Notes: generated from the sequence alone by a model not told the origin. 64,000 nt of DNA from an uncultured bacterium (GCA_963843795.1 CAWJLW010000006.1:2232001-2296000), one strand, 5' to 3'. Positions 2,601 through 63,968 are shown, counted from the first letter of the stretch. Made by a program: numbers and translations.

Positions 2601-2657
2601 GGCAATCTTCACCCCAAATTGTGCGCTGCAAGTACTTGCAGCGCATCGTGAACGGTT

Positions 2658-3218
2658 TCAGGGCTTTTGAAAATGGTGATAATCCAGTCGCGTTGTCCAA
2701 CGCCCGCCCCATTCCCAACCGCGACTTTCAAAAATGCGCACTGCGTCGCTGTCTGCTGTCAGTGTGCCCATTTGACGCACATCATAAACCGCATCAGGCG
2801 GCAAAACTAAATTCGTGCCGTCGGAATTGGGTTTGATATACGGATTCTGGCGCGGATTGATGTCGATGGCGCGGCCCGTTGCGTGATGCGATAAATTTTC
2901 GCCGCCCGCTATCGCGCGATAATTGAAGCCAGAGGAATTGTTAACCCGCATTGATTCATCATCCGACCAACCAAAACGCGCAACGGGAATGACTTTTTCG
3001 ATGGGAAAGCGCATCGTGCATAGTGCGGAAAAAATTTCTAGCACTTCCTTGGCCAAATCGCGCGCGACAACGATTTGTCCGCAGTGCACAAAGCCATCGA
3101 AGCCGATAGTGTGCACGGCAAGTACTTGCTGCTGGGAGATAATCTCGACAGGTGCCGGACAAGCACGCAAAGCCTCTTCATCGGTTACATCGCTGTCGAT
3201 AATGAGCGTTCCATCCAT
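2658..3218 (-). CDS. M15 family metallopeptidase (D,D-carboxypeptidase-like)
   Basis: Motifs FNYR...SHHATGRAIDINP and GWEWGGRW...DYHHFQ. Confidence 0.9.
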   Translation of the reverse strand: MDGTLIIDSDVTDEEALRACPAPVEIISQQQVLAVHTIGFDGFVHCGQIVVARDLAKEVLEIFSALCTMRFPIEKVIPVARFGWSDDESMRVNNSSGFNYRAIAGGENLSHHATGRAIDINPRQNPYIKPNSDGTNLVLPPDAVYDVRQMGTLTADSDAVRIFESRGWEWGGRWTTRLDYHHFQKP

Positions 3219-3264
3219 AAGAAACTGAATTTCACTCCAATAAATTTACAGAACATTCAAAATG

Positions 3265-3300
3265 CAACAGCGCAGTCGAAATAAATCGGCTGCGCTGTTG
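3265..3300. terminator. Stem-loop downstream of the GtaA-like gene
   Basis: caacagcgcagtcga-aataaa-tcggctgcgctgttg. Confidence 0.6.
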
Positions 3301-3315
3301 GATTTCTATGACGCA

Positions 3316-6254: not shown

Positions 6255-7701
6255 ATGAAAGCAAAATTGCCTAAAAACGAAGAAGCACGTTTGCAAGCGT
6301 TACACGAACTATCAAATATTGGATACTTTGCCACAGCAAGCATATGATGACATTGCTCAGTTAGCAGCGCAAATTTGTGGAACACCCATATCTCTGGTCA
6401 GCTTGGTTGATGAAGAGCGTCAATGGTTCAAATCAAAAGTCGGATTGAACGTAAGTGAGTTGCCGCGCGATATTGCGTTTTGCGCGCACGCGATTCTCAG
6501 ACCAGACGAACTGTTCATTATTCCTGATGCAGAAGAAGACAAACGTTTCTTCGATAATCCACTCGTCACGGGCAACCCTTACATTCGCTTTTATGCCGGT
6601 GCCCCTCTGGTTACACCCGATGGCGAATCTTTGGGCAGTCTGTGCGTTATCGACCGCGAGCCGCGCCAATTGAGCAGAGAACAATTGCAAGCTTTGCGCG
6701 CGCTGGCGAGGCAGGTTATGGCGCAAATGCAATTGCAAAGATCGTTCATCGAACTGTCGCAAACCATGCAAGAACGCCGCAAAATCGAAAGAAATTTGCG
6801 TGAAAGCGAACAACGCTTTCAAACCTTCATGAATAACAGCCCGGCACTGGCTTTCATCAAAAATTCAGCGGGCGGTTACGAATATATCAATCAACCGTTT
6901 TTGCATCGCTTTAATTTGCAAGAATCCGAAGTTTTGGGCAAAAGCGATATGGAACTGTGGCCCGCAGATGCCGCATCTGAACTGCGCGAGCACGACCTGC
7001 AAGTACTTGCAGGGGAAGAAACCGTCACTTTGACAGAAACCGTGCCCGATGACGATGGGCAAACAAGTCACTGGCTTTCGTTCAAATTTCCTTTAGCAAG
7101 CTCCAACCAGCGTTTTCTAGCGGGCATGTCGATTGATATCACGCAAAGTAAACGTTACGAACAGCAGATGAAGGAATATCAGGAAAAGCTGGAAGAATTA
7201 GTGACAAAACTGGAAACCCAGAGCAGCACCGACAGCCTGACCGGACTTTTGAACCGCCGCGCCTTTCAGGAAAAGTTGGAAGATGAGTTCGAACGCGCCC
7301 GTCGTTACACCGTGCCGCTGTCGCTGTTGATGCTGGATGTCGATAAGTTCAAAGCCTTCAATGACAGTTTTGGTCACGTCGCAGGCGACGAAACCTTGCA
7401 AACCGTTTCGCACGCGTTAAAAGAAAAAGCGCGCGCCACCGATTCGGTCGCGCGCTATGGCGGCGAAGAATTCATCATTGTGTTGCCCAACACCAGCAGC
7501 GACGGCGCGCAAGTTCTGGCCGAGCGCTTTCGACGCGTCATAGAAGACACGAAATGGCCACACCGTGCAATCACGATCAGCGTCGGGATCGCCACTCTGA
7601 CACCTGAAATTTCCAGTTGCGATCAGTTTGTCGATGCCGCCGACAAAGCTTTGTATCGTGCCAAAGAGAAAGGCCGCAACCGCATCGAAAGCGCAAACTA
7701 A
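6255..7701 (+). CDS. GAF-PAS-GGDEF diguanylate cyclase (apparent +1 frameshift near 6309)
   Basis: ATG 6255 gives [18 protein letters not shown], which joins [15 protein letters not shown] after removing one base. GAF ([15 protein letters not shown]), PAS, D.LTGL.NRR and intact RYGGEEF. Confidence 0.9.
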
Positions 7702-10037: not shown

Positions 10038-10181
10038 GAATTCTCCTAAGGTTGATTTATTCTCACAGTTTGCCCGTTTTGCCATTTGCCGTCAGGCAGG
10101 CGCACGAAATGCTGCTGCAAGTACTTGCAGCGCATCGAGGCGCAATTTTTGCCAGAAGCGCGCTGGATTTCAATTTTCATC

Positions 10182-10955
10182 ATGCAAAAACAGATTAACG
10201 GTCTCAACATTGAATATACAGAACGCGGTAGCGGTAAGACCGCGCTGTGGTTTTCGCACTATTTCGGCGGCTCGTCGCGCACCTGGAACGAAGTTATCGA
10301 AGGCATGGCAAGTACTTGCCACTGCATCGCGCCCGATTTGCGCGGTTTCGGTGCGTCTGAAGCGCCCGCCGAAGCGGAGAATTACCGCATCGCCAAAAGT
10401 GCCGACGATATGGAAGCCTTACGCGAAGAATTGAACGTGGAAAATTTCGTTTTGGTTGGTCATTCCATGGGTGGCAAAATTGCGCTCGAATGGGCCTCGC
10501 GCCAGCCCGCAGGTTTGCAGGGTCTGGTTTTATTGGCACCTTCGCCGCCAACGCCGGAACCGATGAGCGACGTTGACCGGGAAAGCTTGCGTCACAGCCA
10601 CGGCGACACTGAAGCGATGAGCAAAATCATTGGCGAAATTACCGCGCAAACCTTGTCACCGGAAATTTTTCAACGCACATTGGAAGACGACTTGCGCGTT
10701 TCCAAAGCCGCGTGGAATGCGTGGCTGGATGTCGGTAGTCGCGAAGATATTTCGTCGCAAATGACGCGTATCAATGTGCCAGTTCACCTTTTGGCGGGCG
10801 AAAAAGATTCAGGTATGCCCGCTGAAATGTTGCAGCGCGAAGTCGTGGCGCGCTTGAGCGATGTAAAATTTGAAGTCGTGCCCGATTGCGGGCATTTGAT
10901 TCCCGTTGAGCATCCGCAAATCGTGATCAACGCCATTCACAATATTTTGCGCTAG
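10182..10955 (+). CDS. Alpha/beta fold hydrolase
   Basis: APDLRGFG, GHSMGG nucleophile elbow, CGHL.P.E.P. Confidence 0.9.
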   Translation: MQKQINGLNIEYTERGSGKTALWFSHYFGGSSRTWNEVIEGMASTCHCIAPDLRGFGASEAPAEAENYRIAKSADDMEALREELNVENFVLVGHSMGGKIALEWASRQPAGLQGLVLLAPSPPTPEPMSDVDRESLRHSHGDTEAMSKIIGEITAQTLSPEIFQRTLEDDLRVSKAAWNAWLDVGSREDISSQMTRINVPVHLLAGEKDSGMPAEMLQREVVARLSDVKFEVVPDCGHLIPVEHPQIVINAIHNILR

Positions 10956-10999
10956 CTTTCTTTGCAAGTACTTACAGCACATATTTTCATCACAAAATT

Positions 11000-11734: not shown

Positions 11735-11768
11735 GCAAACGCCCTGCAAGTACTTGCAAGGCGTTTGC
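11735..11768. terminator. Hairpin built around a GCAAGTACTTGC core
   Basis: gcaaacgccctGCAAGTACTTGCaaggcgtttgc just after the carbonic anhydrase stop. Confidence 0.55.
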
Positions 11769-14983: not shown

Positions 14984-15447
14984 AATGAATTTAAGGTGAG
15001 GTGGCGTAAATCGGGATTTTCATCATCGTGCGCGATGTCGATTTGCCAGCGCGGGCGCGGCCAGCCCTGCAAGTACTTGCCGATACACTGCGGCCATTCG
15101 ATCACGCGAATCGCGTCGTCGCGGCTAAGAAAATCTTCGATTCCCGCATCGCGCAGCGCGTCGTTATCGCCATCTAAATCTTCCAGTCGATAAGCGTCCA
15201 GATGCAATAGCGGCAGCCGTCCACCGAGATGTTCGACGATTAAAACAAAAGTCGGCGAATTGATAACTGCATCGATTTTCAAGCCTTGCGCCAAACCTTG
15301 CGCGAAAGTCGTTTTGCCCGCGCCGAGTTCGCCACGCAGCCACAAAACATCGCCTTTTTGCAGGTGGGCAGCAAACTGCTGGGCGTAGTGGCGCATCGCG
15401 TTGGCGTCGGGAATGGAAATAATTTGTTCGGATGGAGAATTTGGCAT
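14980..15447 (-). CDS. tsaE: tRNA t6A37 biosynthesis ATPase TsaE
   Basis: GELGAGKTTF, SPTF, HLDAYRL, IEWP. Confidence 0.95.
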   Translation of the reverse strand: MPNSPSEQIISIPDANAMRHYAQQFAAHLQKGDVLWLRGELGAGKTTFAQGLAQGLKIDAVINSPTFVLIVEHLGGRLPLLHLDAYRLEDLDGDNDALRDAGIEDFLSRDDAIRVIEWPQCIGKYLQGWPRPRWQIDIAHDDENPDLRHLTLNSL

Positions 15448-15667
15448 CGCGTATAGTATGGAAAAATCGGCACGCTTCATGGTAGAACTTCGGCAGCGCA
15501 AAACTTCTGGTGCAAGTACTTGCCGGGCCTCTGCAAGAGATCGAATTCATTTTGCGTTGACTTGCAACGAAACACCTTTTATAATGAGGGCAAGTTTGCC
15601 GCATTCCGCCGCTTCCATTGAAACTCGATTTAGCTTTTCAACCGTCACTATTACAGGAGCCGCTTTT

Positions 15668-16793: not shown

Positions 16794-16825
16794 AAAGCGC
16801 CCTGCAAGTACTTGCAGGGCGCTTT
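16794..16825. terminator. 32-bp perfect palindrome centred on GCAAGTACTTGC between convergent genes
   Basis: aaagcgccctGCAAGTACTTGCagggcgcttt. Confidence 0.7.
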
Positions 16826-18797: not shown

Positions 18798-20249
18798 ATG
18801 ATTCAATCCGCTTCTTTTCGGCCTGCCGATAATCACACAGCCGAAGCGACCACGCGGCGCTGGCTGCGTTGGACTTTGGAAACTGCTGGAGATAAAAGCG
18901 ATGTCGGACACGCGGCAGCGCGTTTAGTCGCTGCGCTGTGCCATCTCGTTGAAGCTCGCGGTGCCCTACTCTTGAGCCGTCGCGCCGACAGCGAACAGTT
19001 GTGGCCGCTGGCCTGTCACTTTTCAGCGACGAAGCGTACGCTGGTTAACGGCGAATTTTTCGACGTTGATTTCGATGAAGAGCAAAGCACACAATCGCAA
19101 AACGCTCATCCACATTGCGCGCGCTTCCAGAGTTGGCCCGGTCGCCCTTTAAGCGCCGACGAAGTGGCCACCGATCTTCAACCTTTCCTGCATGCGCTGG
19201 GCGATTTTCTCACACAAAAACATGCTTCTGAAGAAGCGGCTTCCGAGAGAGCGAATGACGCATGGCAGGAAATCGAATTTGAAGGGCCCGATGGCAGCGG
19301 TCACCATGGCAGTCAGAACGCGCGGCAAGTACTTGCCGGAATGTTTTCGGGCGCTGCACAGCGCACAAATGAGCTTCTCGATAGCGATAATGTAAGTTCG
19401 GATGTGGCACGTTCGCCTTCGAGCATCACGGTCGCCATGCAAGACAAGCAAACGAAAAGCAATGGCGATTTCAGCCGGCGTAGCACGCCCAATTTGCTGC
19501 TGCCCCTGCACGATTTTCACAATGAGGGTGGCGAAACTTCGCTCTGTGGATTGGTCGCATTGTGGTTGGATGATGATGCCGCGCTTTCGGCTTCGCAGCA
19601 GCCCTTATTGCAAGCAGCTTTGGTGCAAAGCGAAGGTTGGTTGGCCAATGCACAGCGTACCGAACGTCTGGGACGTTCGTATCGTGATCTGGCGCAGGCG
19701 ATGGCACGCGCGATTGACGAGCGTGACAGCGGGCGCGAGAACCGCTCGCCCAGCGTAGCTTATCTGTGCGATCTCATCGGCCACGCGCTGCATCTGGATG
19801 ACGTTTCCATCGAGCGTTTGGAGTTCGCCGGTTTACTGCACGCTGCAGGTCGCATCACGCTGCCCGATAAGATTTTGCACAAGCAGGGCGCGCTCAAAGC
19901 CAGCGAACGCGATGCGGTAAGAAAAGCATTGTGCATGGGCGCGGTCTGGTTTGAAGAAGTCGATGGATTACGCGAAGTCGCGCTGATGATTCGGCATCAA
20001 AACGAGCGCTTCGATGGCAGCGGTTTTCCCGATGGACTTAAGGGAGAAGAAATTCCGCTGGGCTCGCGCGTTCTGGCCATCGCATTGCGATTCGCAGCCA
20101 TGACGCAGCCGCGCGCTCAACGGGCCGCGTTGCCTTTGGTGGGCGGTGCTTTTCAAAACTTGCGCTCCGAAGCCGGTAGCGCTCTCGATCCACAAATCGT
20201 GCAGGCCTTTTTCCGCGCGATGGGCGAAAAGGAAAGTGGGATTGAATAG
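18798..20249 (+). CDS. HD-GYP-like domain protein with degenerate active site
   Basis: C-terminal HD-GYP fold (ERFDGSGFPDGLKGEEIPLGSR, AGSALDPQIV) but LLHAAGR in place of LLHDIGK. Confidence 0.8.
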   Translation: MIQSASFRPADNHTAEATTRRWLRWTLETAGDKSDVGHAAARLVAALCHLVEARGALLLSRRADSEQLWPLACHFSATKRTLVNGEFFDVDFDEEQSTQSQNAHPHCARFQSWPGRPLSADEVATDLQPFLHALGDFLTQKHASEEAASERANDAWQEIEFEGPDGSGHHGSQNARQVLAGMFSGAAQRTNELLDSDNVSSDVARSPSSITVAMQDKQTKSNGDFSRRSTPNLLLPLHDFHNEGGETSLCGLVALWLDDDAALSASQQPLLQAALVQSEGWLANAQRTERLGRSYRDLAQAMARAIDERDSGRENRSPSVAYLCDLIGHALHLDDVSIERLEFAGLLHAAGRITLPDKILHKQGALKASERDAVRKALCMGAVWFEEVDGLREVALMIRHQNERFDGSGFPDGLKGEEIPLGSRVLAIALRFAAMTQPRAQRAALPLVGGAFQNLRSEAGSALDPQIVQAFFRAMGEKESGIE

Positions 20250-20397
20250 GTGAAAGGTAGAAGTTTCGAGCGCCAGGTTATTGCTTTTTGCAAGTACTTG
20301 CAGAGTAAGATTCGCGTTCTTTTTGAAACTTCCAGCTTCCAGCTTCTCCATTTCACTTTCCGATAAATTTACAGCGAACTGAAAAAGGAATTTGGGC

Positions 20398-23238: not shown

Positions 23239-23399
23239 CCCATCAACACCTCGCGGCCATCAGCAAGTACTTGCAGCGCTTCTCTGCAAAATGGGAATGT
23301 AACAGCCGATCAACATCGACACCCCCCGACAAAAGCCATCGCGTGCAATTTCGCGATGGCTTTTGTCACATCGACCTGCTTTCGGCGTGTTTGCACCGA

Positions 23400-23439
23400 C
23401 CAAAAAGCGCATGGCAAGTACTTGCCATGCGCTTTTTGG
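23400..23439. repeat. 40-bp perfect palindrome centred on GCAAGTACTTGC
   Basis: ccaaaaagcgcatgGCAAGTACTTGCcatgcgctttttgg. Confidence 0.9.
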
Positions 23440-26699: not shown

Positions 26700-26825
26700 A
26701 CGGCACAGTAATTACGCAGCAACGATATTTCGCAAGTACTTGCAGCGGGCAAAAAGTCTCGAAGCACGTTGCAAGTACTTGCGGTGCATAAAACCCGGGG
26801 CATTGCAGCGGGGAAGGAAATTATC

Positions 26826-28002: not shown

Positions 28003-28050
28003 AAACGGAGAAAGCGCTCTGCAAGTACTTGCAGAGCGCTTTTTCCGTTT
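28003..28050. terminator. Bidirectional hairpin centred on GCAAGTACTTGC
   Basis: aaacggagaaagcgctctGCAAGTACTTGCagagcgctttttccgttt between convergent cpaB and the metal permease. Confidence 0.75.
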
Positions 28051-29938: not shown

Positions 29939-29984
29939 CGCAAGAAAAACGCCGGTGCAAGTACTTGCACCGGCGCATAAATCG

Positions 29985-37280: not shown

Positions 37281-37437
37281 CAAGAATTTGACAGCGATAT
37301 CTTCGGGTTTGGAAGTGGGCAAAGCGACGCGACTTTCGATGCAACGTGCGCGATTTCAGAAATCTCATGGCGCAGAAACAAACAAACGGCGCAAGTACTT
37401 GCGAGTTCACAAGTGCTTGCGCCGTTTAAAAAGGTGC

Positions 37438-39326: not shown

Positions 39327-39387
39327 AAATAAAAGCAATAGCCCGCAAGTACTTGCAGCGAGTACTTGCGGGCTATTGCTTTTATTT
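39327..39387. terminator. 61-bp inverted repeat with two palindrome copies, downstream of gnd
   Basis: Perfect 27-bp arms aaataaaagcaatagcccgcaagtact / agtacttgcgggctattgcttttattt with a 7-nt loop. Confidence 0.75.
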
Positions 39388-40898: not shown

Positions 40899-41086
40899 TA
40901 CATTTCCTTTTCTGCGTTATTTGGTTTGATAAAGTGCGATGCAAGTACTTGCAGGTCACTCGCAATTTTTGGTGCGCCTTGTGGTTTATCTTATTGCAGT
41001 GCGCGTTTCCACGCCCAAAGCCTCCACAACACGTCAATTTCGATTAACATGAAACCTGTGTTGCGAAAAATCAATGGAAACGTATC

Positions 41087-41954: not shown

Positions 41955-41988
41955 AAAAACGCGCTGCAAGTACTTGCAGCGCGTTTTT
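41955..41988. terminator. 34-bp perfect palindrome centred on GCAAGTACTTGC between convergent genes
   Basis: aaaaacgcgctGCAAGTACTTGCagcgcgttttt. Confidence 0.75.
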
Positions 41989-43048: not shown

Positions 43049-43962
43049 ATGTCAGCTAAAACACTCAAAACCATTGATCTCGAACTGTGCCGCAAACGCC
43101 CGCTGAACGATTTCTCCGAACAATCGGGCAAAGCCACGCGCGGCAAATTATTGGTCGTCGGCGGCAGTGCGCGCTTGCCCGGCGCCATTTTGTTATGCGC
43201 CCGCACCGCTCTGCGCACCGGCTGCGGCACCGTGCGCGTGGCGACACCCAAAAGCGTTGCTTTGGCAATCGGCGTCGCATGCCCAGAGTTGATGGTTTTG
43301 CCATTGCCCGAAACCAAAAGCGGAACGATTGCCCGCAGCGCGCTGCAGGTACTTGCCGAGCAATACGAAGCCTGTGATGCCGCCGTCATCGGGCCAGGTT
43401 TGGACGAAAACCCAGGAAACCGCGCAATTCGCGCACGAATTTGCCGCCCAATGTCCGTTGCCGACAGTACTCGATGCCAGTGCAATGTTCGCTGCAAGTA
43501 CCTGCACCAGCTTTCCCGCGTCGCGCATCTGGACGCCGCACGATGGCGAAATGCAAACCTTAATCGAACGCGAATTTGAAGAAAAAGAACGCCCGCAAAT
43601 TGCACTCGATTGGGCCAAGCGCTACGAAAATGACGCTGCAAGTTACTTGCGCCTTGAAAGGTCGGGAAACTTTTATCGCCAACAATCAAGGCGAATTATT
43701 TCGCAACATTCGCGGCACGCGAGGTTTGGGCACAGCGGGCAGCGGCGACGTGTTGAGCGGCGTGATTAGCAGTTTATTGGCGCAGGGGAACGACGAAACG
43801 ACAGCGGCAATTTATGGCGTTTATCTGCACGCTCTGGCTGGAGAAGACGCGGCGAAAATGATTGGCGAGGATGGATTGTTGGCCAGTGATTTCGAGGCTC
43901 GCTTGCCGTTTGTGCTACGCGAATTGAAACGGCGCAGGAAGCGACCCAAGCGTCGAATTTGA
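43049..43962 (+). CDS. nnrD: ADP-dependent NAD(P)H-hydrate dehydratase (two apparent +1 frameshifts, near 43412 and 43643)
   Basis: K..RGKLLVVGGS...PGA, IGPGL, VLDASA, WTPHDGEM, LKG, GTAGSGDVLSG spread over three frames. Confidence 0.9.
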
Positions 43963-44038
43963 AACTCTCAGCAAACAAAACGCCCGCAAGTCACTCGTAG
44001 CAAGTACTTGCGGGGCGTTTTGCTGTCAAAACAAACGT

Positions 44039-47000: not shown

Positions 47001-50000
47001 ACGAAAACTTCCTGCTGGGCTTGAAAAACCTGGTAATCTTTCACCAGCGCAGCAGCGATAGCGAAGTTGGGCACGCGGTCGTGCGTGATGGAAATTTCGA
47101 TCTGACGGCTTTTGCCTTCGATCGTTATCACATCGCGGCGCAGAATTTCGCCGCTGCTTTCCTGAGTGAGCAAAACTGTTGTATCTGGCTTATCGGCCAC
47201 CAGAAGTACTTTGGCCACATCGCCTTCTTCGTAAACGCGCTTGTCCAAAACAATCGTCAAACCAGCCTGACGAAATTCAGTTTGATTAAGTTTTGGCCCA
47301 TCGATCCAAATCGTGATCGAGGCTTTGACTTCGTTGTTCTGCGCATCGACGCTTTGCCACGCGATGCGGAATTGACCCGCGCCGACGCTTTGCCATTCCC
47401 AAAACGCGCGACCTGTTTTGTCAACCGTCACAGCTTCTTCGCTAACTTTTTCTTCTTTATCGCCTTCCAACAAGCGATACACCACCATTTTGCCGGTCGC
47501 GGCGACCGGTTTATCGTTGGCGTTGCGAGTCACAATTTCGATTTGCACACGGTCGCCTTCCTGATAAAAGCCGCGTTTGGCATCGAGAAACGCGAAATAA
47601 TCCTGACTGGCGACTTTCACCGCGCCGCTGCCTTCAATGGTGCGCCGGCTGCTATCAGTGACTTCGACTTCTATCGCATAAAGCGGATTGCTGTAGCTGC
47701 GCCACCAGTAATTGCCGTCGTTCTTCTCATCGGGTTCGGTTGCGGCGACAAATGTCACTTCCGCGTTGCCCTGCGCATCGGTTTTGGCAGTGCCTTCTTT
47801 AATAATCGGCCCGCTGCCTTCGCCGCCAAGGTTGCGACGCTGATCGTCCCATGGATTCCACGACACGTTCCAGCGGTCGAGCAACCAATCATACGGCGTC
47901 GGAAAGCGATAACTCGCCCACCAATTGCGCCGCCGCACCGTGTATTTCACCGTCGCATTGGCCACCGGCGAACCGAAGTAATACTTGGCGCTGATTTTCG
48001 CCGCGATGGTTTCGCCCGGTCGCACCGCTTCATCGGGCGCATCAACCGTGACTTCAAATTCGGGACGTTTGTATTCTTCAACGCGAAAACTTGCGCCACC
48101 ATTGCTCAACGTTTTGATGTTGTTTTTGTCGCTATCATCCACCAGCGCAGCGTTCAAACTGTAATTACCCAGAGGTGTTTCTTGGGGTAAATCGAGTTCT
48201 CCATTGACACTACCGAATTCGGATGTGTCAAAAGTTTTACTCAGCAATTGCTGGCCTTTGGGATCGTTAATTGTGATTTGAACGCGCCGATTGGCAGCAG
48301 CTTTCTGATCGCCGCCTTTGTCTTGTTGCGAGACGACAAAGCGCCAGTAGACTTTTTGCGCCGGTCGATAAACGGTGCGGTCGGCATAACCGTAAATTTT
48401 GAATTCCTGATTGCGGTCGCCCCACCAGTAGCCGTTGTAACCATTACCGGTCAATGCGTAGCTTTTGCCACGCCACGCGAAAACCGAAACGCGGCTATTG
48501 TTGTAACGTTCAGCGCTGTCTTTCAAAGCTTTATCGACGAAACCGCCATCGTTGCTGGGCGCGGTTTTGGCATCGACTTTTTGCACTGTAGTGCCGTTTT
48601 CCTGTGTGTTGTAAATTTCCTTGACAATCGTATTCACGCCGCTCAGCGCCCGTCCGCTTTTAGCATCGGCCAGAAACGCGAAGGCGTTTTTGCGGTCGAC
48701 TTTCTTCAAAATCGCCAAGTCGGAAATCAGCATCAAACGCGCCGCTGCAAGTACTTGCGGGCGACTTTTATCGCGCGCCACGATGATATACGCGCCCAAA
48801 TTCTGCAATGGCGTGTCAATGGTTTCATTGCGCGGCTGATAATCATTTTTATCGCCGGTTTGGATTTCCCATTGCGCGACCGGAGCGCCGAGTTCCCTGA
48901 CGATTTGTTCAATCGAACCGAAATTGTCGCCAAATTCGGTGAAATTCACATCTTCGTTGTTGACTTTTTCGGGTCGCGCGAGATATTTTTCTAAAGCAAT
49001 CGGATAAGCCGCCAGTTGCAGCGTATTAATGTTGCGCGCATTGTAAGTCAATTTCGCTTTGACGCCTGGCGCTTGAGCGCCCATCGTGTCCAGTGAAATT
49101 TCGTGTTTTTCGATTTGCTGCAAACTGGCGCGCGCATCGCGCACCCATTTCGATTTGGGAAATTTTTCAATCACGACCAGATAAGCCGCGCGCGCTTTGA
49201 CTAAGTCATTTTGCTGCTGAAAAGTTTGCGCGATTAAGATCTGCGTTTGTGGCGCGACTTCGTTGTTCGGATATTTTTCCACCAGTTCACGCCAGGAATC
49301 GATCGCTTCTAGATGATCAAACGGATAAGGGCGCGTCACGGTTTTCTTCAATTCTGCATCATATTTACGCGCCCAACCGTCCATGCGCTGTCGATACGAC
49401 CGCAGCCACAAACCTTTGCCCAAAAGAGCTAACGCCGAATCGCGCTTGTCTTTGCCCTCGTCCAAACGCGGAATTTCGTTGTAAAGATAAATGACTTTCT
49501 TTGGCATCGACCAACCGGCCTCGAACGGCACATCAGCGGGCACATTTTCATCGAAATTTGCGTCGCCCTCTTTGCGTTTGTTCAGAACTTCGATTAAATC
49601 GTCCAATTCCTGCGCCGCCAGAGTCGCCGCGAGGTCGAAATTGAGGTCGATTTCTTCCTTGTTACTGAGCGGGTAAATCGGCCCGGCAAATCGCGCGCGC
49701 ATCACCAAATCGCGTTCTTTCTGCGCTTCGATTTTGGCGTCCTGCAAGTAACTTGCGCGACTTCTCGGCGTTTTCTTGCGATAAATAAACCTGCTGTGGC
49801 TTGGTCGCTGCATCGATTTTCGGATAATCATCGCCGTAATATAAGCGCTCGCCAACTTTCCAAGCCTGGTTAGGCAACTTGGTATACAGCCGACCCATCC
49901 AATACAACACGCGCGCTTTCCATTGCGCGCTTTGGAGCAAGGCTTCGCTCGCGGCAACCGCCGCGTTCCATTGTTCGGTTTCGCCCAGCGCCACCGCGAT

Positions 50001-50213: not shown

Positions 50214-50392
50214 AACGTTTTCCTTAGTGCTATTAAAGCTTGTGACAGGAAAAGTGCGCTTTCTGTTCCCGTTAAGTGCGCTTACTATCAATAAACCAAG
50301 TTTCAGAATTTCAAAAACAAAAAAGCCCGCAAGTACTTGCAGATACGTTGCAGGTGCTTGCGGGCTTGATTTTACGTAAAACGCTTCAACTT

Positions 50393-52186: not shown

Positions 52187-52248
52187 AAAATTGTGTCACC
52201 TCAAAAATGCCTGCAAGAAGGCTGCAAGTACTTGCAGGGCGTTTTAGC

Positions 52249-52869
52249 TTATTTAAATGCGCTCAAATGCGCCACTTCGTTCACGCTTTGCAACGCTATG
52301 CGCGCGCCAATTTCCACACGCGTTACGCTTGCATTACCGACGTTTAGGGCGCGATAACTGTGCAACGGCGCGTCAAGAATCTCGCAGATGATAACGCGAA
52401 TCATGTTCTGGTGCGTCACCAGCGCGATTTTTCCATCGCCGTCACGATATTTTCTAACGAGCGTTTGCCATGCGGGCTTCATACGCGCCTGCAAATCGCG
52501 CAAATTTTCGCCCCCTGGCGCGCGTACATCCAACGGATTGGCTTTTCTTTGCGCCCACAAATCGGGCCAGTTCGCCAGTAATTCGCGTTCGCCACAACCG
52601 TTCCAATCCCCGAAATCCAACTCGCGCCAAACCGCGCTTTCCTGCACTTTCAACCCGTGCGACGCGGCAAGCATCGAAGCCGTATCGCGCGCACGTTTCA
52701 AATCGGAACTGTAAATTGCACTCAGTTCCTCGTGCTGCAAGTACGTGCTGAGCGCATGGGCCTGTTCCTTTCCGCGTTGCGTTAACAACACATCGTTCCA
52801 ACCGGCGAAGGTCAAACGTCCCACATTGCCCGCGACTTCGCCGTGTCGAATCAGAAAAATCGTCGCCAT
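52249..52869 (-). CDS. Histidine phosphatase family protein
   Basis: LIRHGE, SSDLKRA.DTA, RELDFGDW.G, PGGE, LVTH. Confidence 0.92.
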   Translation of the reverse strand: MATIFLIRHGEVAGNVGRLTFAGWNDVLLTQRGKEQAHALSTYLQHEELSAIYSSDLKRARDTASMLAASHGLKVQESAVWRELDFGDWNGCGERELLANWPDLWAQRKANPLDVRAPGGENLRDLQARMKPAWQTLVRKYRDGDGKIALVTHQNMIRVIICEILDAPLHSYRALNVGNASVTRVEIGARIALQSVNEVAHLSAFK

Positions 52870-52948: not shown

Positions 52949-54013
52949 TCAATTTTTCACTAAATCGCGCGCCATTCGCGCCGTCGAGCGCGCCAAATCC
53001 GCTAATTCTTGTCGCTTTTCCTGGCTCAAAGGTTTCGCCTGCGCGACCGCGTTTTCCAGCGCGGCTTCGTCATTCAAATTATCCAGACAGGGTGCGCCAA
53101 TGATTTCGGCCAGCGCGCGCACTTTGGGATCGTAGTTAATCGCGATGCAGCGAACGCCGCGCGAAGCGGCAAAAATCAAGGCGTGCAAGCGCATCGCGAT
53201 CATCAGTTCGCCACGACCTGCTTCGCCCACAATTTGGCGCACCGACAGCGCACTTGTATCGACAAATTCATCGCGCGACGCATCGCCATGCTGCTGCAGG
53301 TAGGTGCGCAACAGCGGCCCATCGTGTTGCGGCTGCAATGGCAGCAAACGCAACCGCGCGCCGTGACGCTTGGCCAATTTGGACAAAAATGCGCCATTCC
53401 CGCCATCGTTTTCCGGCCACGAACGCAACGCCAATGTCCAAGCTTCATGGTTCAACGGTTCAAGCCTGGGCGCATCTAACGCCCACACCGGATCAGCGGT
53501 GACGTGAATTTCGCGTTTCACGCCGATTTCGCGCAGCAGTTGCGCCGAACTTTCATCGCGCACGCACAAACAATTTGCGCCATTGAAAGCCGCGCGCGCC
53601 AATTTGCGCGACAACGATTTGTTCAATGGCCCGACGCCCTGAGCATAAATCATCAGTGGCTTGCGCGCCAACCGCGCGAAACGCATCAGACCGGTGTAAT
53701 AAACCACGTTACGCAAACTTGTCACGTCTTGAACCAAACTGCCGCCACCCGAAACGAACAAATCGCAAGCTCGAATATTTTGCAGCAGTTCGCGCGGGTT
53801 CTGGCGACCGATAGCGCGAACGGGATGCGCGGACGCGTCGTGTGCTCTCTGCGTTTGTGCTGCATCGCCCGAAGTGACGATAAATTGCGCGCTGCAAGTA
53901 CTTGCAGCATCATTTGCAGAGAATTGAGCGCCCAATTGTTGAAGAATGGCCGCTAAAACCGCTTCATCACCCGCGTTGGCGTAGCCGTAGTAACCGTTAA
54001 GAAAAACTTTCAC
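52949..54013 (-). CDS. csaB: Polysaccharide pyruvyl transferase CsaB
   Basis: GYYGYANAGDEA, SGGGSLVQDVTS, AQGVGPL, VRDESS, MRLHALIFA, YDPKV. Confidence 0.92.
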   Translation of the reverse strand: MKVFLNGYYGYANAGDEAVLAAILQQLGAQFSANDAASTCSAQFIVTSGDAAQTQRAHDASAHPVRAIGRQNPRELLQNIRACDLFVSGGGSLVQDVTSLRNVVYYTGLMRFARLARKPLMIYAQGVGPLNKSLSRKLARAAFNGANCLCVRDESSAQLLREIGVKREIHVTADPVWALDAPRLEPLNHEAWTLALRSWPENDGGNGAFLSKLAKRHGARLRLLPLQPQHDGPLLRTYLQQHGDASRDEFVDTSALSVRQIVGEAGRGELMIAMRLHALIFAASRGVRCIAINYDPKVRALAEIIGAPCLDNLNDEAALENAVAQAKPLSQEKRQELADLARSTARMARDLVKN

Positions 54014-54070
54014 GCACGCAGTTAAGCAAAAAGCGCGCAGCAGGTACTTGCACAACGCTTGTTCGATTTC

Positions 54071-55519: not shown

Positions 55520-55557
55520 ACAAAAGCGTTCTGCAAGTACTTGCAGAACGCTTTTGT
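55520..55557. terminator. 38-bp perfect palindrome centred on GCAAGTACTTGC after the second cpaE
   Basis: acaaaagcgttctGCAAGTACTTGCagaacgcttttgt. Confidence 0.75.
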
Positions 55558-56801: not shown

Positions 56802-56958
56802 GAAAATTTATCCTAACTCAAACCGTGTCCGACCTATATCTATGCAGCAAATACTTGCCACCGTCTGGGCGCTGTGTTCTGTATTTACCTGCCGCGATGT
56901 TCTTATAACGACATTATTCTAGCGAGATTGTTATCACATTCTATGCCAGTGCGCTGGG

Positions 56959-56998
56959 GAAATATCAGGCCCGCAAGTACTTGCGGGCCTGATATTTC
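56959..56998. repeat. 40-bp perfect palindrome centred on GCAAGTACTTGC
   Basis: gaaatatcaggcccGCAAGTACTTGCgggcctgatatttc. Confidence 0.9.
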
Positions 56999-60615: not shown

Positions 60616-60645
60616 AACAGCCCTGCAAGTACTTGCAGGGCTGTT
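60616..60645. terminator. 30-bp perfect palindrome centred on GCAAGTACTTGC after the second cpaB
   Basis: aacagccctGCAAGTACTTGCagggctgtt. Confidence 0.65.
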
Positions 60646-60653
60646 TTAGCTTT

Positions 60654-61964
60654 TCACTCGCGAGGTTTCTTGACCGTATCGGTTCGCACCAGTTTGCCAT
60701 CACCGTAAACGGGAATGTCGTAAGTCGTGGGCGGTGGCGGCGACATTTTTTCGACGTTAGCGGGCGGAATAATCGGCACGTCCCGACTGCCGCCGCTTTC
60801 GGGCGAAGGAATCGTTGGCGGCCCCACATAATTGACTCCGCCGCCCCGACTGGAACGCGATGGACGCGACGCTGCGCCCGAAGAAACGTTACGGATGCCA
60901 TTGCCGCTATTAGAGCTAGTCGCGCTGCTTTTGGCGGGCGCAGGATTTTTCAGGCGAGCGGAATAAGGAGCCAGTTGCGGACGTGTAATAGAAGCGGCGC
61001 GTACAGTGGCTTCGCCGTCGGCCAAACGCACATCGCCCGCATTGTCGCCACTGATGTCGGCATTAGACGGAACGCCGGGTTCGTTGCGCGGACGCAGTAA
61101 AAAGTCGATGTTTTGTCCCGCGGCCTGCGTCAGCGCGATGGCTGCTGCCTGTTCGGGCGACACTTCAATCGTCAGCGCCGGTTCGGGACGCGGCGGTGGC
61201 GGGCCATCGGTGGGAGCTGGCGTGGGAGCCGCTCCCGGAACGGGCACAACAGTGGGTGCGGGCGCGCTACCTGCAGGCGCATCGGGACTGGTGGCCGCAA
61301 CTGGCGCAGCCGAAGGTGAGGATGGATTGGCGGTGTCGATAGAACGCGCGCTGGCCTTGTAATCGCCACGCATGGCGACTTTTACCTGCGGATAATCTTT
61401 GCCGAAGACATCGACTGCCAGCACGCGCACATTTTGAACCACCGTGCGCGCTTCAGCCTGATCGAACGACGCCACAATATCAATGCGGTCGCCCACACGT
61501 ACCAATTCGTGCAATGTATTTCTATTAGTCAGGGGAATCACCATCGCGCGCAAGCCAGGCTGCAAAGCGCCTGCGATGCCCACTTCGCTGATGTGACCGA
61601 CGAAATCGGCCTGACGTAGCGAAGTTCCGCTGGCGATGGGACGCGCTGTGATGAAACCTATGGCTTGAACGCCGGGATCGGTAACGAACGGCCCCGGCTC
61701 CATACCGGCGCGCGCATCGACCATTTTCAGCATATCCATAGTGACAATGCTACGCTCGGGAATGTCTTCGCGCGCTACAGCGATGCGAAATGCGGAAGTC
61801 GGCGCGACTGGTATTGTCTCGCCATTTTCCGTGGTTTGAGCCACAACAGGTGGCGAAGTTTGCGCTCTGTTCAGCAAGCCGCGCACGACGTAAACCAAAC
61901 CGATGAGAATCAACGCTACAGCAGCTATGAAAGCGCCGATGCGCATATTCCGATTAGTACGCAT
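60654..61964 (-). CDS. cpaB: Flp pilus assembly protein CpaB/RcpC (second copy)
   Basis: TM, VAREDIP, LQPGLRAM.I, VGDRIDI, VVQNVRVLAVD, LTIEVSPEQA. Confidence 0.9.
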   Translation of the reverse strand: MRTNRNMRIGAFIAAVALILIGLVYVVRGLLNRAQTSPPVVAQTTENGETIPVAPTSAFRIAVAREDIPERSIVTMDMLKMVDARAGMEPGPFVTDPGVQAIGFITARPIASGTSLRQADFVGHISEVGIAGALQPGLRAMVIPLTNRNTLHELVRVGDRIDIVASFDQAEARTVVQNVRVLAVDVFGKDYPQVKVAMRGDYKASARSIDTANPSSPSAAPVAATSPDAPAGSAPAPTVVPVPGAAPTPAPTDGPPPPRPEPALTIEVSPEQAAAIALTQAAGQNIDFLLRPRNEPGVPSNADISGDNAGDVRLADGEATVRAASITRPQLAPYSARLKNPAPAKSSATSSNSGNGIRNVSSGAASRPSRSSRGGGVNYVGPPTIPSPESGGSRDVPIIPPANVEKMSPPPPTTYDIPVYGDGKLVRTDTVKKPRE

Positions 61965-62390
61965 ATCTTAATTTTATCCCCAAAAAATAACGCCGTTCTC
62001 AACGCTCACGATTTCGTCTGCTGCGTTTGCGCCAAACCCAATACTCAGTAACAATTGTGTCGCCTTCATCATAGCACATTTTTTTCGCTGGTTCACAACT
62101 AACAGCAAATTTTTAGATTTCAACCCTGCTTTTTCCATCTCAGTTGCAACACGGGCGCTTGTAATGAAAATGGCGAATTTAAGTGAATTTGCAAAGGCCC
62201 CATTGAAAGAAAATTTCCGTTACAGACAAATCCTCTCTTTTCTTTTATCCACAGGCGACGCCAATTTTGAGAACACGCTCTCAATCCTTCGCAATAAAAC
62301 TATAAAACTCGCGTTGCAAGTACTTGCAGGGCACACGATTTAGCTCAATCGCTCCATGCGCGGCGCGATGCATAAATTCGATGCATGATT

Positions 62391-63827
62391 TCAAGCATGA
62401 TTTTCGTGATGGCCTTCTTTATCCGGCGGCAACTGCAAACGCAACGCGATAATACGCAGACGATCGATTTCTTCGACCAACAGATGCGCGCCATTAATTT
62501 CAACCTCATCGCCCACCTGCGCCGGTCGTCCCAATTCGTTCATCACCAATCCGGCCACGGTATCGACCTCATCCGAGCGAAAGCCCAAGCCATAAAGCTC
62601 GTTCAGTTCGTCGATTAAAACGCGACCGCGCAAACGAATTGTGCCATCTTCGCGTTGGACGATTTCGGGGTCGGGCGCATCGAATTCGTCCTGCACATCA
62701 CCAAACACTTGATGCAACAAATCTCCCATCGTGACCAAGCCCGACGTGCCGCCATACTCGTCGATGACAATTGCCATCTGTTGTTGCCGGCCTTTGAATT
62801 CGGTCAGTAAACGATCAATGGTAATGGTTTCGGGCACGCGCGGCGCCTCGCGTAACAACGGCATCAGGTTTATTTTGGCTTCGGGTTCAGCATCGCCATG
62901 CGGGAGGGTGCTTTCAAAACGCACCAGGTCGCGCAAATGGGCAATGCCCAGAATTTCATCGACCGTGCCGTGATAAACCGGAACGCGTGTGTGCGGTTCG
63001 CTGCGCAAATAATCTAAAAATTCTGCGCGTGTCATTTCGACCGGTAGGGCTTTCATCTCGACGCGCGGCAGCATTGTTTCGCGCGCGGTGATTTCCGAAA
63101 ACTTGACCACGCGATGCAACAATTCGCGCTCGGTCGCAGTAAGCTGACCCCCTTCATGGGCCTGCGTGAACAAAATATCGAGTTCTTCAGGTGAATGTAC
63201 CGAACTGTGTTCGCCGCTGGAATGGATGCCGATGCGGCGCAGCAGAAAATTGCCCGTGCCATTGAGCATCCAAATGAGCGGCGTGAACAAGCGTGCGAAC
63301 AACAGCATCGGGCGCGCGATAATCAGCGTGGTCGATTCGGTTTTGGTAAGCGCGATAGATTTTGGCATCAATTCGCCGACGATGACGTGCAGCGCCGTCA
63401 TCACGAAATAAGCCAATCCAATCGCTACCACGCCGCGCGTGAGACCGCCGCCCGTTTCAGGCAAAAACCCAAACAGCGGTTCGAACAGTTGATGAAAAGT
63501 GCGTTCGCCGATGCCGCCTAATAACAGCGAAGCGACGGTGATGCCGACTTGAGTGGCCGCAATGTAACGATCTAAATCGCGCACGGCACGCTGTACCAAA
63601 ACAGCGGATGCGTTGCCTTCGGCGGCCATCTGGTCGATGCGCGTGCGGCGCACTGCGACCAGGGAGAATTCGGAGGCCACAAAAAAACCGTTCAATAACA
63701 CCAAAAACAGCACGATGCCCAGCGAAACGGCCATCTGCTGAGGCGTCATGTGTTCGACAACGCTGGCTGCCTGAGTAGCGGCGTGAGTCGCGTCGGAAGC
63801 GGATAAAGGAGGTTGGTCAGATGCCAT
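62391..63827 (-). CDS. HlyC/CorC (CNNM-CBS) family transporter
   Basis: LNGFFVASEFSLV, QVGIT, GELMPK, CBS pair, IDEYGGTSGLVT, CorC domain. Confidence 0.94.
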   Translation of the reverse strand: MASDQPPLSASDATHAATQAASVVEHMTPQQMAVSLGIVLFLVLLNGFFVASEFSLVAVRRTRIDQMAAEGNASAVLVQRAVRDLDRYIAATQVGITVASLLLGGIGERTFHQLFEPLFGFLPETGGGLTRGVVAIGLAYFVMTALHVIVGELMPKSIALTKTESTTLIIARPMLLFARLFTPLIWMLNGTGNFLLRRIGIHSSGEHSSVHSPEELDILFTQAHEGGQLTATERELLHRVVKFSEITARETMLPRVEMKALPVEMTRAEFLDYLRSEPHTRVPVYHGTVDEILGIAHLRDLVRFESTLPHGDAEPEAKINLMPLLREAPRVPETITIDRLLTEFKGRQQQMAIVIDEYGGTSGLVTMGDLLHQVFGDVQDEFDAPDPEIVQREDGTIRLRGRVLIDELNELYGLGFRSDEVDTVAGLVMNELGRPAQVGDEVEINGAHLLVEEIDRLRIIALRLQLPPDKEGHHENHA

Positions 63828-63968
63828 GAAAATTGTCGCGTCTGGCTCGATGCACTGCGCACGTACTTGCAGCGAGTATGTATGTGCGCAGTGCATCGAA
63901 ACTTAAAACAAAAAATGCGAAATGCGTCCGGCGGAAAATTCCGCGTTTAGCATTCCGCATTTTGAAAA

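Follow-up and report, generated by a model that had tools for sequence, protein, structure and literature searches.

Abundance of a 12-bp palindrome in the window and the genome

The window, i.e., the whole 64,000-nt stretch of DNA analysed here, carries the competence gene comEA together with gnd, tsaE, csaB, a rimI-like gene and a diguanylate cyclase gene, and a 12-bp palindrome with an AGTACT core recurs within and between the genes (Table 1). The host is a soil-type bacterium of the family Abditibacteriaceae. There are 36 exact copies between 2628 and 62327, as against none in 100 dinucleotide shuffles. Allowing at most one mismatch gives 48 copies (shuffle mean 0.12, largest 1), the last at 63859–63870, and thus 12 one-mismatch copies; the counts of the earlier note agree with this recount.

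Table 1. Copies of the 12-mer, and the comEA gene, in the window
Position	Strand	Feature
2628..2639		exact; intergenic, hairpin centre (6 further pairs)
3118..3129		exact; coding, QVLA frame
6999..7010		exact; coding, diguanylate cyclase gene, QVLA frame
10117..10128		exact; divergent region, intergenic by our own gene calls
10308..10319		exact; coding, ASTC frame
10964..10975		one mismatch
11746..11757		exact; imperfect hairpin, 29 nt past stop codon
14167..14178		exact; coding, rimI-like gene, QVLA frame
15069..15080		exact; coding, tsaE, KYL frame
15512..15523		exact; divergent intergenic region, no hairpin
16804..16815		exact; loop of terminator-like hairpin, convergent genes
19325..19336		exact; coding, QVLA frame
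20290..20301		exact; intergenic
23263..23274		exact; intergenic, 24 nt past stop, no hairpin
23414..23425		exact; loop of 18-pair terminator-like hairpin
26732..26743		exact; intergenic, next copy 39 bp away
26771..26782		exact; intergenic by our own gene calls
28021..28032		exact; loop of 20-pair terminator-like hairpin, convergent genes
29117..29128		exact; intergenic by our own gene calls, maybe within N-terminal extension
29957..29968		exact; loop of terminator-like hairpin, - strand
30946..30957		one mismatch
32605..32616		one mismatch
32659..32670		exact; intergenic
34328..34339		exact; intergenic, short hairpin
35886..35897		one mismatch
37391..37402		exact; with degenerate copy, two hairpin arms
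39345..39356		exact; double-copy hairpin after gnd with one-mismatch copy at 39358
39358..39369		one mismatch; 13 bp from copy at 39345
40941..40952		exact; divergent region upstream of gnd and comEA
41087..41947	+	comEA (SLBB, helix-hairpin-helix), competence machinery; motif reading only conceivable
41966..41977		exact; hairpin loop (11 further pairs) after comEA, convergent genes
43345..43356		one mismatch
43494..43505		one mismatch
44000..44011		exact; intergenic
45306..45317		exact; coding, QVLA frame; identical short-read contig spans site
45477..45488		exact; coding, QVLA frame
45657..45668		one mismatch
48747..48758		exact; coding, QVLA frame
50329..50340		exact; with degenerate copy, hairpin arms
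52224..52235		exact; intergenic
52737..52748		one mismatch
53894..53905		exact; coding, csaB, ASTC frame
54040..54051		one mismatch
55533..55544		exact; hairpin loop (13 further pairs)
56847..56858		one mismatch
56973..56984		exact; hairpin loop (14 further pairs)
60625..60636		exact; hairpin loop (9 further pairs)
62316..62327		exact; intergenic
63859..63870		one mismatch

The genome (G000; 4.30 Mb, 11 contigs) contains 2,567 exact copies with overlaps (2,563 non-overlapping) and 506 with one mismatch. Markov models of the motif-masked genome predict 0.23, 0.21 and 0.45 copies at orders 0, 2 and 4; the order-6 expectation is 42, because near-copies leak into the model. The suspected excess over a Markov model is therefore found (fewer than one copy expected at orders 0–4), and it is genome-wide and not confined to the window, which the earlier note would have taken as a refutation. 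Density is 0.6 per kb, with 57–66 copies per 100 kb alike at origin, terminus and arms and no ori/ter gradient in G000, and the spacing is even, i.e., under-dispersed with gap filling. Mapping against acquired islands shows the 12-mer depleted in IS and RM islands; the two largest motif-free gaps in G000 are IS islands and a type I RM island, motif-free chromosomal islands reach 26 kb, the injection-system contig C3 is nearly devoid of the word, and some small contigs have a low density.

A short-read contig, possibly from the same sample, bridges the copy at 45306 with 0 differences, so that absence from short-read data is not the case, and the 12-mer is also found in contigs of other species in other assemblies. 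No target-site duplication was seen at the G000 copies: the 53 eight-base direct repeats are not such duplications, because all of them equal the self-complementary arm AGCGCGCT. The 20-nt flanks are nearly all distinct (5,073 of 5,126), which together with the lack of target duplications argues against a mobile element. The flanks had been described as unconserved; this stands in that no element is shared, but a weak consensus is present (A-tract at -8 to -11, G/C at -7 to -3, CT at -2/-1), as is an A/T period of 10.4 bp.

Coding copies and helically phased flanks

In G000, 756 of the 2,563 copies (29.5%) are coding and about 70% are intergenic, a 14-fold intergenic bias. The tetrapeptide QVLA occurs 569 times in the proteome, against 22–40 for seven permutations (about 15-fold up), and 498 of the 569 are encoded by the motif. 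Protein identity at the sites is 16–30% compared with 62–66% overall (G009, G015, G006 and dialect-free relatives), and the copies align without a uniform insertion, residues being replaced. The position of coding sites is kept in 7 of 20 and 4 of 16 cases in two other species (67–68% protein identity). The signal acts at the DNA level, since copies within genes fill gaps in the spacing, replace amino acids and hold their position across species.

Each 12-mer lies at the dyad of an A/T pattern that is symmetric, has a 10.4-bp period and extends about 50 bp per side. At 570 deep coding sites the amplitude is 0.047, versus 0.003–0.007 for four control words, with one small control word at 0.019 (n=402). 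It is still 0.027 at -66 to -25 on both sides, the largest null in 200 permutations being 0.014. The phasing runs for 4–5 turns each side with an amplitude that falls with distance, and close neighbours are phased at 10.45 bp (230 pairs, 15–110 bp; none of 2,000 jittered nulls reached this strength). Half-sites are barely enriched in G000, where full palindromes account for 5,134 of 5,687 GCAAGTAC. The symmetric pattern and the phased neighbours point to a dimeric protein that probably bends or wraps DNA at these sites. Both the phased flanks and the co-option of the word by terminators had been overlooked in the earlier note.

Dialects in the Abditibacteriaceae

The family set comprises 27 genomes (G000 and 26 others), 7 with a dialect of the word and 20 without. 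Other GTAC-centred dialects are present in 6 of the 26 further genomes, namely CAAAGTACTTTG (1,231 copies in G001, 11 in G000), TCGAGTACTCGA (2,770, 2,510 and 2,261 copies in G009, G015 and G019; 0 in G000 and G001), a G012 dialect containing GAGTACTC, and an asymmetric arm in G006, AGTACGGTCGA (1,188 + 1,224 copies). Exact G006 arm pairs are inverted in a single orientation (55 of 55 in 240 kb), while 36 of 219 are true single arms; these have no strand bias (34 +, 45 -), both strands being used in 11 of 12 windows. Dialect words range from 8 to 24 bp, and AGTACT density in the dialect genomes is 0.7–1.2 per kb; among 236 genomes elsewhere in the phylum none is AGTACT-rich. No dialect was found in G017, which lies inside genus g6, nor in 19 other family genomes. 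Species dialects with a common core, island thinning, proteome distortion and terminator co-option bear out the earlier proposal of a genome-wide mark of the HIP or DUS type.

Candidate functions of the word

The reading that we tentatively prefer is that the 12-mer could be a species-specific self-DNA watermark working like the Neisseria DUS or the Pasteurellaceae USS. Both are strict words in many copies (1,465 USS, 1,892 DUS; PMC7811141), as is the present one. As described, Neisseriaceae have thousands of strict 10–12-mers, about one third coding (34.5% in N. meningitidis; PMC2817400), and uptake sequences have been reported in poorly conserved protein segments (PMC2817400). Tripeptide enrichment, recently acquired genes without the word and co-option by terminators are further likenesses to DUS (PMC3630211, PMC2817400, PMC1852404). 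The eight DUS dialects share a CTG core (PMC3630211), as the present ones share GTAC, with near-zero cross-use between species, and the inverted arm pairs plus true singles of G006 recall the DUS/USS pattern of inverted pairs as terminators (PMC1852404). The USS has helically phased T-tracts and a bent shape (PMC3458573, PMC7811141); a core with phased A/T tracts would likewise imply a bent substrate, although the USS, as described, is an asymmetric 9-mer with two tracts to one side, and the present word a palindrome with 4–5 turns in either direction. ComEC is present in 27 of 27 family genomes (whole in G000) and DprA in 5 of 5, and G000 has a type IV pilus locus in addition to the comEA of the window. 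A circular 10.6-kb element, whose 7 scanned proteins include no relaxase, bears the word 19 times exactly and 4 times with one mismatch.

Several observations weigh against uptake. Competence genes are equally present in the 20 dialect-free family genomes, pilC and gnd seem frameshifted in the G000 assembly (probably long-read errors), and the minor pilins from the pilus locus, which in G000 range from neutral to acidic (pI 4.4–5.8), are alike in dialect-bearing and dialect-free genomes. ComP_DUS (PF16732) had no match in 5 of 5 genomes, with a silent control, and no reader was identified among the candidates examined (pilins, ComP_DUS, TetR_N, histone fold, GyrA, HU-like). Known uptake sequences are asymmetric and read by one asymmetric site, whereas here only the G006 arm has an asymmetric core. 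Compared with DUS as published, most words are perfect palindromes read whole, a single copy forms a terminator loop, the phased flanks are long, the phylum is another one, and an uptake preference is only proposed. The two-sided phasing outruns the tracts of the USS and is more like the gyrase motif of 130 bp.

The main rival, possible but on the unlikely side, is an architectural or topological site at which a dimeric nucleoid protein, gyrase or a gyrase-loading factor would sit on the palindrome and wrap about 100 bp, forming a node every 1–2 kb; most nodes would lie at the ends of genes, where positive supercoils arise from transcription. The symmetric phasing at deep coding sites, its persistence at -66 to -25, the phased neighbours and the under-dispersed spacing all favour it, as does copy density, which falls from convergent (3.96 per kb) through tandem (3.09) to divergent (1.89) regions. 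The E. coli gyrase motif, the Mu strong gyrase site and BIME-2 are described with symmetric phased G/C-A/T flanks of about 50 bp per side and enrichment downstream of genes, and the symmetric 130-bp gyrase motif has a 4-bp central cut (PMC6379681), for which GTAC would fit as the overhang. A single type IIA topoisomerase is the only one in 25 of 27 family genomes, and Xu et al. proposed a chromosome-structure role for HIP1 (PMC5861425). However, the gyrase motif as described is degenerate, without a strict 12-bp core (PMC6379681), and its amplitude is described as flat, whereas that of the present word decays; one small control word, moreover, was itself raised. GyrA here is ordinary; the sole differences that go with the dialects are 2 columns within an insertion that is itself variable. 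Histone folds were absent from 5 of 5 genomes with a positive control, TetR was not found in G000 or G006, and the single HU-like protein is divergent (37–48%) in dialect-free genomes too. The dialects are patchy within the family, 26-kb islands do without the motif, and an uptake drive would more easily account for thousands of sites being replaced wholesale between species of one genus.

The SlmA binding site, GTGAGTACTCAC, is present in tens of sites. It resembles the 12-mer as a 12-bp palindrome with an AGTACT core and has GAGTACTC in common with the G012 dialect, but occurs once in G000, where the 12-mer has thousands of sites and no terminus exclusion. SlmA SBS, matS, Noc NBS and parS number in the tens and are either restricted to a macrodomain or kept out of one, unlike a word spread throughout. 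The chromosome-organising site suggested earlier thus does not fit the regional types known for SlmA, MatP and Noc, because density is equal at origin and terminus and G000 gave no match to TetR_N.

Cyanobacterial HIP1 (GCGATCGC, another word) has a debated function, with transformation, repair and chromosome structure under discussion (PMC4390886, PMC5861425, PMC13756078), and saturation at about 1 per kb has been predicted (PMC4390886). A HIP1-type origin, by methyltransferase-linked repair bias (Elhai's ratchet) or as a hemimethylation landmark for mismatch repair, is improbable here. As described for HIP1, the word is an iterated palindrome near 1 per kb with positions kept in genes, its central 4 bp are of a methylase type, and the lineage has a conserved orphan methyltransferase; GTAC is retained in all dialects, and their AGTACT density fits the predicted saturation. 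The enzyme is an orphan DPPY beta-class adenine methyltransferase. Of the 27 family genomes, 20 have it whole, among them all 7 dialect bearers, 2 have a broken copy and 5 gave no match; nor was it found in 236 genomes from the rest of the phylum. Eight g2/g5 genomes that carry the gene have a GTAC observed/expected ratio of 0–0.22, compared with 0.46–0.89 in 4 of 5 without. This family-restricted enzyme may modify GTAC. The co-occurring methyltransferase anticipated in the earlier note thus has a conserved candidate, but one also present in 13 dialect-free family genomes. Its target is putative, no close homologue being characterised (best 36%), and its putative recognition loops are identical in all dialects, and it therefore cannot set 12 bp. 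Moreover, G000 has 3,264 GTAC beyond those of the motif; G016 and G025 avoid GTAC (0.14, 0.08) without the gene, and G003, G004 and G017 are at 0.32–0.48 despite it, kin not being independent. Neither a C5 methyltransferase, a requirement of Elhai's model, nor a D12 one was found in G000, and the ratchet does not explain the phased flanks. HIP1 as described is also an 8-bp, phylum-wide word, whereas the present word has 12 bp (8–24 across dialects) and is species-level, strongly intergenic and used in terminators, with cognate methylation only putative. In Campylobacter RAATTY/CtsM, palindrome and orphan m6A methyltransferase could likewise jointly mark self DNA, but there the methylase site is described as the entire signal (PMC10046745); the present word greatly exceeds a beta-class target in length, and it differs between dialects whereas the enzyme loops do not.

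Quite improbable is a Chi-like self-mark for a defence system or end-resection motor, with unmarked DNA degraded and plasmids and phages copying the word. It would agree with the even spacing and with small plasmids and resident mobile elements that bear the host dialect, one at about three times the chromosomal density, and with an IMG/VR contig of 58 kb that bears the G006 dialect. Yet G000 retains long chromosomal islands without the motif as well as small contigs of low density, and RE_ScaI and PabI gave no match, though both controls were silent. Chi and KOPS have a replichore-skewed orientation, whereas the G000 word is palindromic and the G006 arm lacks strand polarity across the 12 windows.

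A primary role as an RNA element (terminator or mRNA 3'-end hairpin with a protein-bound GUAC loop) is very improbable. A copy lies at most 60 nt past the stop in 1,363 of 3,448 G000 genes (with a U-rich tail in 699), 182 of 287 convergent-region copies lie within hairpins of at least 8 further pairs, and the four longest terminator-like matches in window positions 10001–30000 are all centred on the 12-mer. However, 235 of 448 divergent regions bear copies with hairpin extension in only 22 of 264, the 756 coding copies alter proteins, 18 compensatory palindromes occur 0–4 times each in G000, and only 1 of 84 G009 copies has a hairpin of at least 10 pairs. The primary RNA role is largely refuted and terminator use is a co-option. 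A REP/MITE remnant or assembly artefact is scarcely credible: a weak Y1_Tnp match in G000 (E 4e-7) and REP-like intergenic hairpins are offset by distinct flanks, missing target duplications, residue-replacing coding copies, no Y1_Tnp in G006, no Rfam match, and the word's presence in short-read and independent assemblies, and REP/MITE are recognised by an extended conserved unit, by target duplications or by a transposase of their own, none of which accompanies the 12-mer.

In toto, the 12-mer looks like an undescribed self-DNA watermark whose protein reader was not found. We propose that a two-fold symmetric protein would read the double-stranded palindrome and wrap or bend about 100 bp around itself, and that the bent fragment would enter more readily via type IV pilus, ComEA and ComEC, or pass a later transformation step. 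It is conceivable, if doubtful, that the orphan methyltransferase puts m6A on GTAC and that methylation is part of the signal, as for Campylobacter RAATTY and HIP1. Biased uptake followed by recombination would write the word into permissive places until nearly all 1–2 kb fragments carry one copy, and an altered reader specificity would have the genome rewritten into a new dialect.

Number, placement and flanks of the word in the source genome

The earlier note had described a highly iterated 12-bp palindrome in the window, GCAAGTACTTGC (core AGTACT), and had proposed that it marks the whole genome. Its counts were reproduced, with 36 exact and 12 one-mismatch copies in the window (shuffles give 0 and 0.12), and the enrichment does extend genome-wide: in the 4.30 Mb of the source genome, G000, there are 2,567 exact and 506 one-mismatch copies, where Markov models of orders 0-4 on the masked genome predict 0.2-0.45 exact copies. 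Judged by the source names of the nearest homologues of one gene, the organism belongs to Abditibacteriaceae. On the 3.6-Mb contig the density is 47-83 copies per 100 kb, the exceptions being the first bin (30) and the last 23 kb (none). The skew has its minimum near 3.51 Mb and its maximum near 1.52 Mb, with dnaA at 3.42 Mb, and the origin, the terminus and the arms all carry 57-66 copies per 100 kb. Among the main texts of freely available papers, the word GCAAGTACTTGC appears in none, and those on Abditibacter or armatimonad palindromes, methyltransferases, uptake sequences and GTAC contained nothing on the present system.

Genes were called with our own hexamer model (3,448 genes, 85.6% coding), which leaves start positions, and in a few cases the coding or intergenic label, uncertain. 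By these calls the 2,563 copies divide into 1,794 in intergenic DNA (2.89 per kb), 756 in coding DNA (0.21 per kb) and 13 on an edge. The word is present in 274 of the 416 convergent regions, 1,092 of the 2,055 tandem ones and 235 of the 448 divergent ones, and a copy is found within 60 nt 3' of the stop codon of 1,363 of the 3,448 genes. At least 8 further pairs extend the word into a hairpin at 182 of 287 copies in convergent regions, at 283 of 1,227 in tandem regions and at just 22 of 264 in divergent regions; the role of the word as a terminator is therefore real, yet secondary. The conserved feature is the sequence and not the hairpin, since each of 18 compensatory palindromes occurs only 0-4 times in G000 and both halves are needed, the full word completing 5,134 of 5,687 left halves.

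Coding copies are read as QVL (496), KYL (145) or AST (115). QVLA occurs 569 times in G000 versus 22-40 times for its seven permutations, with 498 occurrences written via the motif, and ASTC occurs 133 times versus 2-8 for permutations; codon usage alone gives 0.004 for CAA GTA CTT. The spacing of the word is under-dispersed, with 80 gaps longer than 4 kb versus 232 in a null that preserves the coding/intergenic split, and coding copies become denser away from intergenic ones, from 0.08 per kb right beside one to 0.45 per kb when the distance is 2-3 kb. In the stretches poor in the word, where 78 of 128 listed proteins were scanned, two 26-kb motif-free gaps contain IS elements and a type I RM island, and genes for a contractile injection system lie on a 40-kb contig with three copies. 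Type I and Eco57I-like methylases were among the genes seen on motif-poor islands. The injection system on the 40-kb contig (C3; L253, L254) is extracellular and looks complete, including sheath, tube, baseplate, Pvc16, AAA ATPase and DUF6519 components.

A new observation concerns the flanks. Around 570 coding copies situated at least 135 nt from gene ends, and relative to a frame-matched background, A+T content peaks at -9/-10, -20, -30/-31, -41 and ~-50 and dips between, with a period of 10.4 bp and an amplitude of 0.047; four control words gave 0.003-0.007 and a fifth, small one 0.019. The phasing is present on both sides of the word, is also seen in 1,007 hairpin-free intergenic copies, and beyond -25 amounts to 0.027 versus a null mean of 0.005 (largest 0.014 in 200 permutations). 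When copies are 15-110 bp apart, their distances favour multiples of 10.45 bp (R 0.32 over 230 pairs, a strength reached by 0 of 2,000 jittered nulls), which may follow in part from the flank pattern. Helically phased A/T flanks suggest that a protein would bend or wrap ~100 bp of DNA with the word at the dyad, a prediction that can be checked for HIP1 too.

Dialects in the family and on mobile DNA

The exact 12-mer has 0-3 copies in each of 40 relatives, and a trait of a single genome was considered until related words appeared. Counts of AGTACT are bimodal, 2,813-4,733 in six genomes (G000, G001, G009, G012, G015 and G019) and 1-285 in the other 21 family genomes; outside the family the density is at most ~0.24 per kb in 236 genomes. 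GTAC-centred words, here called dialects, are found in these six and in G006. The G001 dialect is CAAAGTACTTTG (1,231 copies, 63% complete), TCGAGTACTCGA is found in G009 (2,770), G015 (2,510) and G019 (2,261), and G012 uses the loose form (c)GAGTACTC(g); each dialect word is almost missing from the other clade. The G006 dialect is an asymmetric arm, AGTACGGTCGA (2,412 copies), of which 174 of 219 sampled lie in near-perfect inverted pairs overlapping by two A/T bases and 36 are true singles. An apparent one-strand run of this arm was a listing artefact, the sampled arms showing no strand polarity. Metagenome contigs with G+C of 60-68% and ~70% nucleotide identity to G000 represent at least two more species and have (g)CAAGTACTTG(c) as their word, with AGTACT at 1.2 per kb. 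Phasing similar to that in G000 surrounds the g6 dialect TCGAGTACTCGA (0.037, period 11.0, n=126) and is weak in the looser metagenome dialect (0.015); neither G012 (n=50) nor the flanks of the G006 arm showed it clearly.

Two other species with a looser form of the G000 word (67-68% protein identity to G000) keep the position of its coding sites in 7 of 20 and in 4 of 16 cases. Among relatives with another dialect or none (G009, G015, G006 and pooled dialect-free loci), identity at the sites is 16-30% versus 62-66% overall, G001 and G012 offering too few sites (2 and 1) to inform. Trees of RecA (careful) and ComEC (quick) did not separate genera g1, g3, g4 and g6 reliably; either two gains or a single gain followed by losses would fit them.

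G017, within g6, showed no dialect in the 80 kb sampled, and its accessory stretches contain foreign dialect words. The mixed words on its metal-transport island (Table) suggest that the island passed through hosts with dialects, or that its donor was changing from one to another. Around comEC of G016 (L049), an unrelated repeat, ACACCAGCCACGTCC, forms inverted pairs with long spacers (at least 10 copies in 20 kb) and is either REP-like or another dialect system. A 16-mer scan across GTDB gave at least 36 loci, which among the matches listed are 35 single chance matches and contig L026, probably a misbinned Abditibacteriaceae contig.

Four terminal-repeat contigs carry the G000 word. L187 (10.6 kb) has 19 exact and 4 one-mismatch copies, ~3x the chromosomal density, and encodes a primase-helicase, PIN and HTH proteins, three of its proteins being related to G000 contig C8; L167, L177 and L186, chosen by the search pattern itself, have 1-4 copies each. 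Small contigs of G000 have a word density below that of the chromosome. The G006 dialect is present on a 58-kb IMG/VR contig, and viral scans with G009-type and G001-type words gave single matches only (13 and 79 loci). A viral scan with a 14-mer gave, among the matches listed, low-G+C phage (38-43%; L305 and L349, one 67.8-kb IMG/VR contig, and L285 and L312). The L305/L349 phage has GTGCAAGTACTTGCAC-type palindromes, mostly intergenic and directly upstream of genes, and no protein match to G000; this is likely a phage operator regulon converging on the same 12-mer.

The orphan methyltransferase and the search for a reader

For METHYLTRANSFERASE, G000 has one PF01555 enzyme (256 aa, DPPY), encoded at C6:2517368-2518135 without a restriction partner; C5 and D12 methyltransferases were not found in this genome. 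Of the 27 family genomes, 20 have an intact orthologue (56-75%) and 2 a broken one, and in 5 none was found; a search of 236 genomes elsewhere in the phylum was negative as well. In the DNA sampled, g5 and most g2 genomes have lost nearly all GTAC (observed/expected 0-0.22), and the ratio is back at 0.46-0.89 in four of the five genomes that lack the gene. G016 and G025, which avoid GTAC although they lack it, and G003, G004 and G017, which have it at 0.32-0.48, speak against this link. GTAC is a putative target of the enzyme, an assignment that we judge less likely than not. The methyltransferase is not the dialect reader; its loops are identical across dialects. Its neighbourhoods vary, with no partner gene found, and no short palindrome cluster hinting at its target was found at dnaA. 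Searches for RE_ScaI and PabI gave no match, their controls being silent too. Avoidance of GTAC and CTAG is extreme in g2 and g5 (one AGTACT in the 6 Mb of G005), and the families f11 and f34 of the phylum have 0-54 copies of AGTACT, with no orthologue of this enzyme found.

G000 has ComEC, ComEA, DprA and a pilus locus, as do dialect-free relatives to the same extent. No dialect-linked candidate emerged from the comEC neighbourhoods of 21 relatives, GyrA (24 genomes) or HU (5), and the minor pilins in the pilus loci of 20 relatives are not basic and have no link to dialect. A ComP_DUS search gave no match (its control was silent too), and histone-fold, TetR and Y1 transposase searches gave no reader candidate. 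Gyrase is the sole type IIA topoisomerase in the family. The splits in gnd and pilC (Table) are probably long-read indel errors; overlapping contigs list no indel and do not clearly bridge the place.

Table. Location of individual features in the window, in G000 and in other loci
Feature	Location	Observation
Two Tad/Flp pilus clusters (CpaE-like, secretin, CpaB)	window 20392-27995 and 55572-61964	secretins unusually long (980 and 1,126 aa)
gnd (6-phosphogluconate dehydrogenase)	window 39395-40898	split in two frames
pilC and probably two more pilus genes	G000 contig C6:383-403 kb	also split
Single HU-like protein	G000 contig C6:985681 (L522); also L521, L523-L525	lysine/alanine-rich tail; 37-48% identity across family
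Metal-transport island of G017 (Mn/Zn ABC, RND efflux)	L238:277-11050 (contig C30); also L239, L240	mixed G001-, G012- and G006-type words
Tandem array of G016	L220:13538-13860	perfect 17-bp repeat, ~18 units
Contig in Gemmatimonadaceae-labelled MAG	L026:1-2930	77% identity to G000; three word copies

Candidate functions and significance

We tentatively favour, at somewhat less than an even chance, the reading of the word as a transformation watermark whose reader would be a symmetric DNA-bending receptor. This is based on the dialects around a core, the permissive coding sites, the empty islands, the co-option as terminator, the asymmetric paired variant and the patchy presence, a population-genetic pattern resembling that reported for DUS and USS in PMC2817400, PMC3630211 and PMC1852404. 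The phased A/T flanks resemble USS as well, for which phased A/T tracts and a bent shape are described in PMC3458573 and PMC7811141. The system appears to act like DUS and HIP1, yet would belong to neither: the G000 core is palindromic, which sets it apart from DUS, and both word and host differ from HIP1.

An architectural role is less likely, and is favoured by the long two-sided phasing, which is like that of the gyrase motif in PMC6379681. A joint reading, rather unlikely in our judgement, would make the palindrome the dyad of a sequence-positioned, nucleosome-like particle that also serves as a species barcode in DNA exchange. A lineage-specific dimeric protein, or gyrase steered by it, would recognise a methylated GTAC-centred word, ~100 bp would be wrapped at ~2,500 evenly spaced sites, and each species would have recast its whole genome, proteins and plasmids in its own dialect. 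A repair ratchet of the HIP1 type, as outlined in PMC4390886, is improbable, and a self-mark in defence still more so. That the word is an RNA element is very improbable. A mobile repeat or an artefact is barely credible, neither a longer conserved unit nor a target duplication having been found around the G000 copies, nor any Rfam match in the window.

According to bioRxiv 2025.10.24.684340 and PMC7811141, sequence-specific uptake watermarks are established in two proteobacterial families only, and PMC13756078 presents the function of HIP1 as a question open for three decades. The combination, in a separate phylum, of a HIP-like palindrome with DUS-like dialects, dialect-free sisters and an asymmetric variant provides a natural experiment, in which gene content can be compared with where the word was gained, lost or switched as a route to the reader, and transformation across dialects would be a direct test of the watermark. 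As a species barcode, the dialect could assign plasmids and viral contigs to hosts and expose misbinned contigs such as L026, and it would matter for attempts at transforming Abditibacteriaceae.
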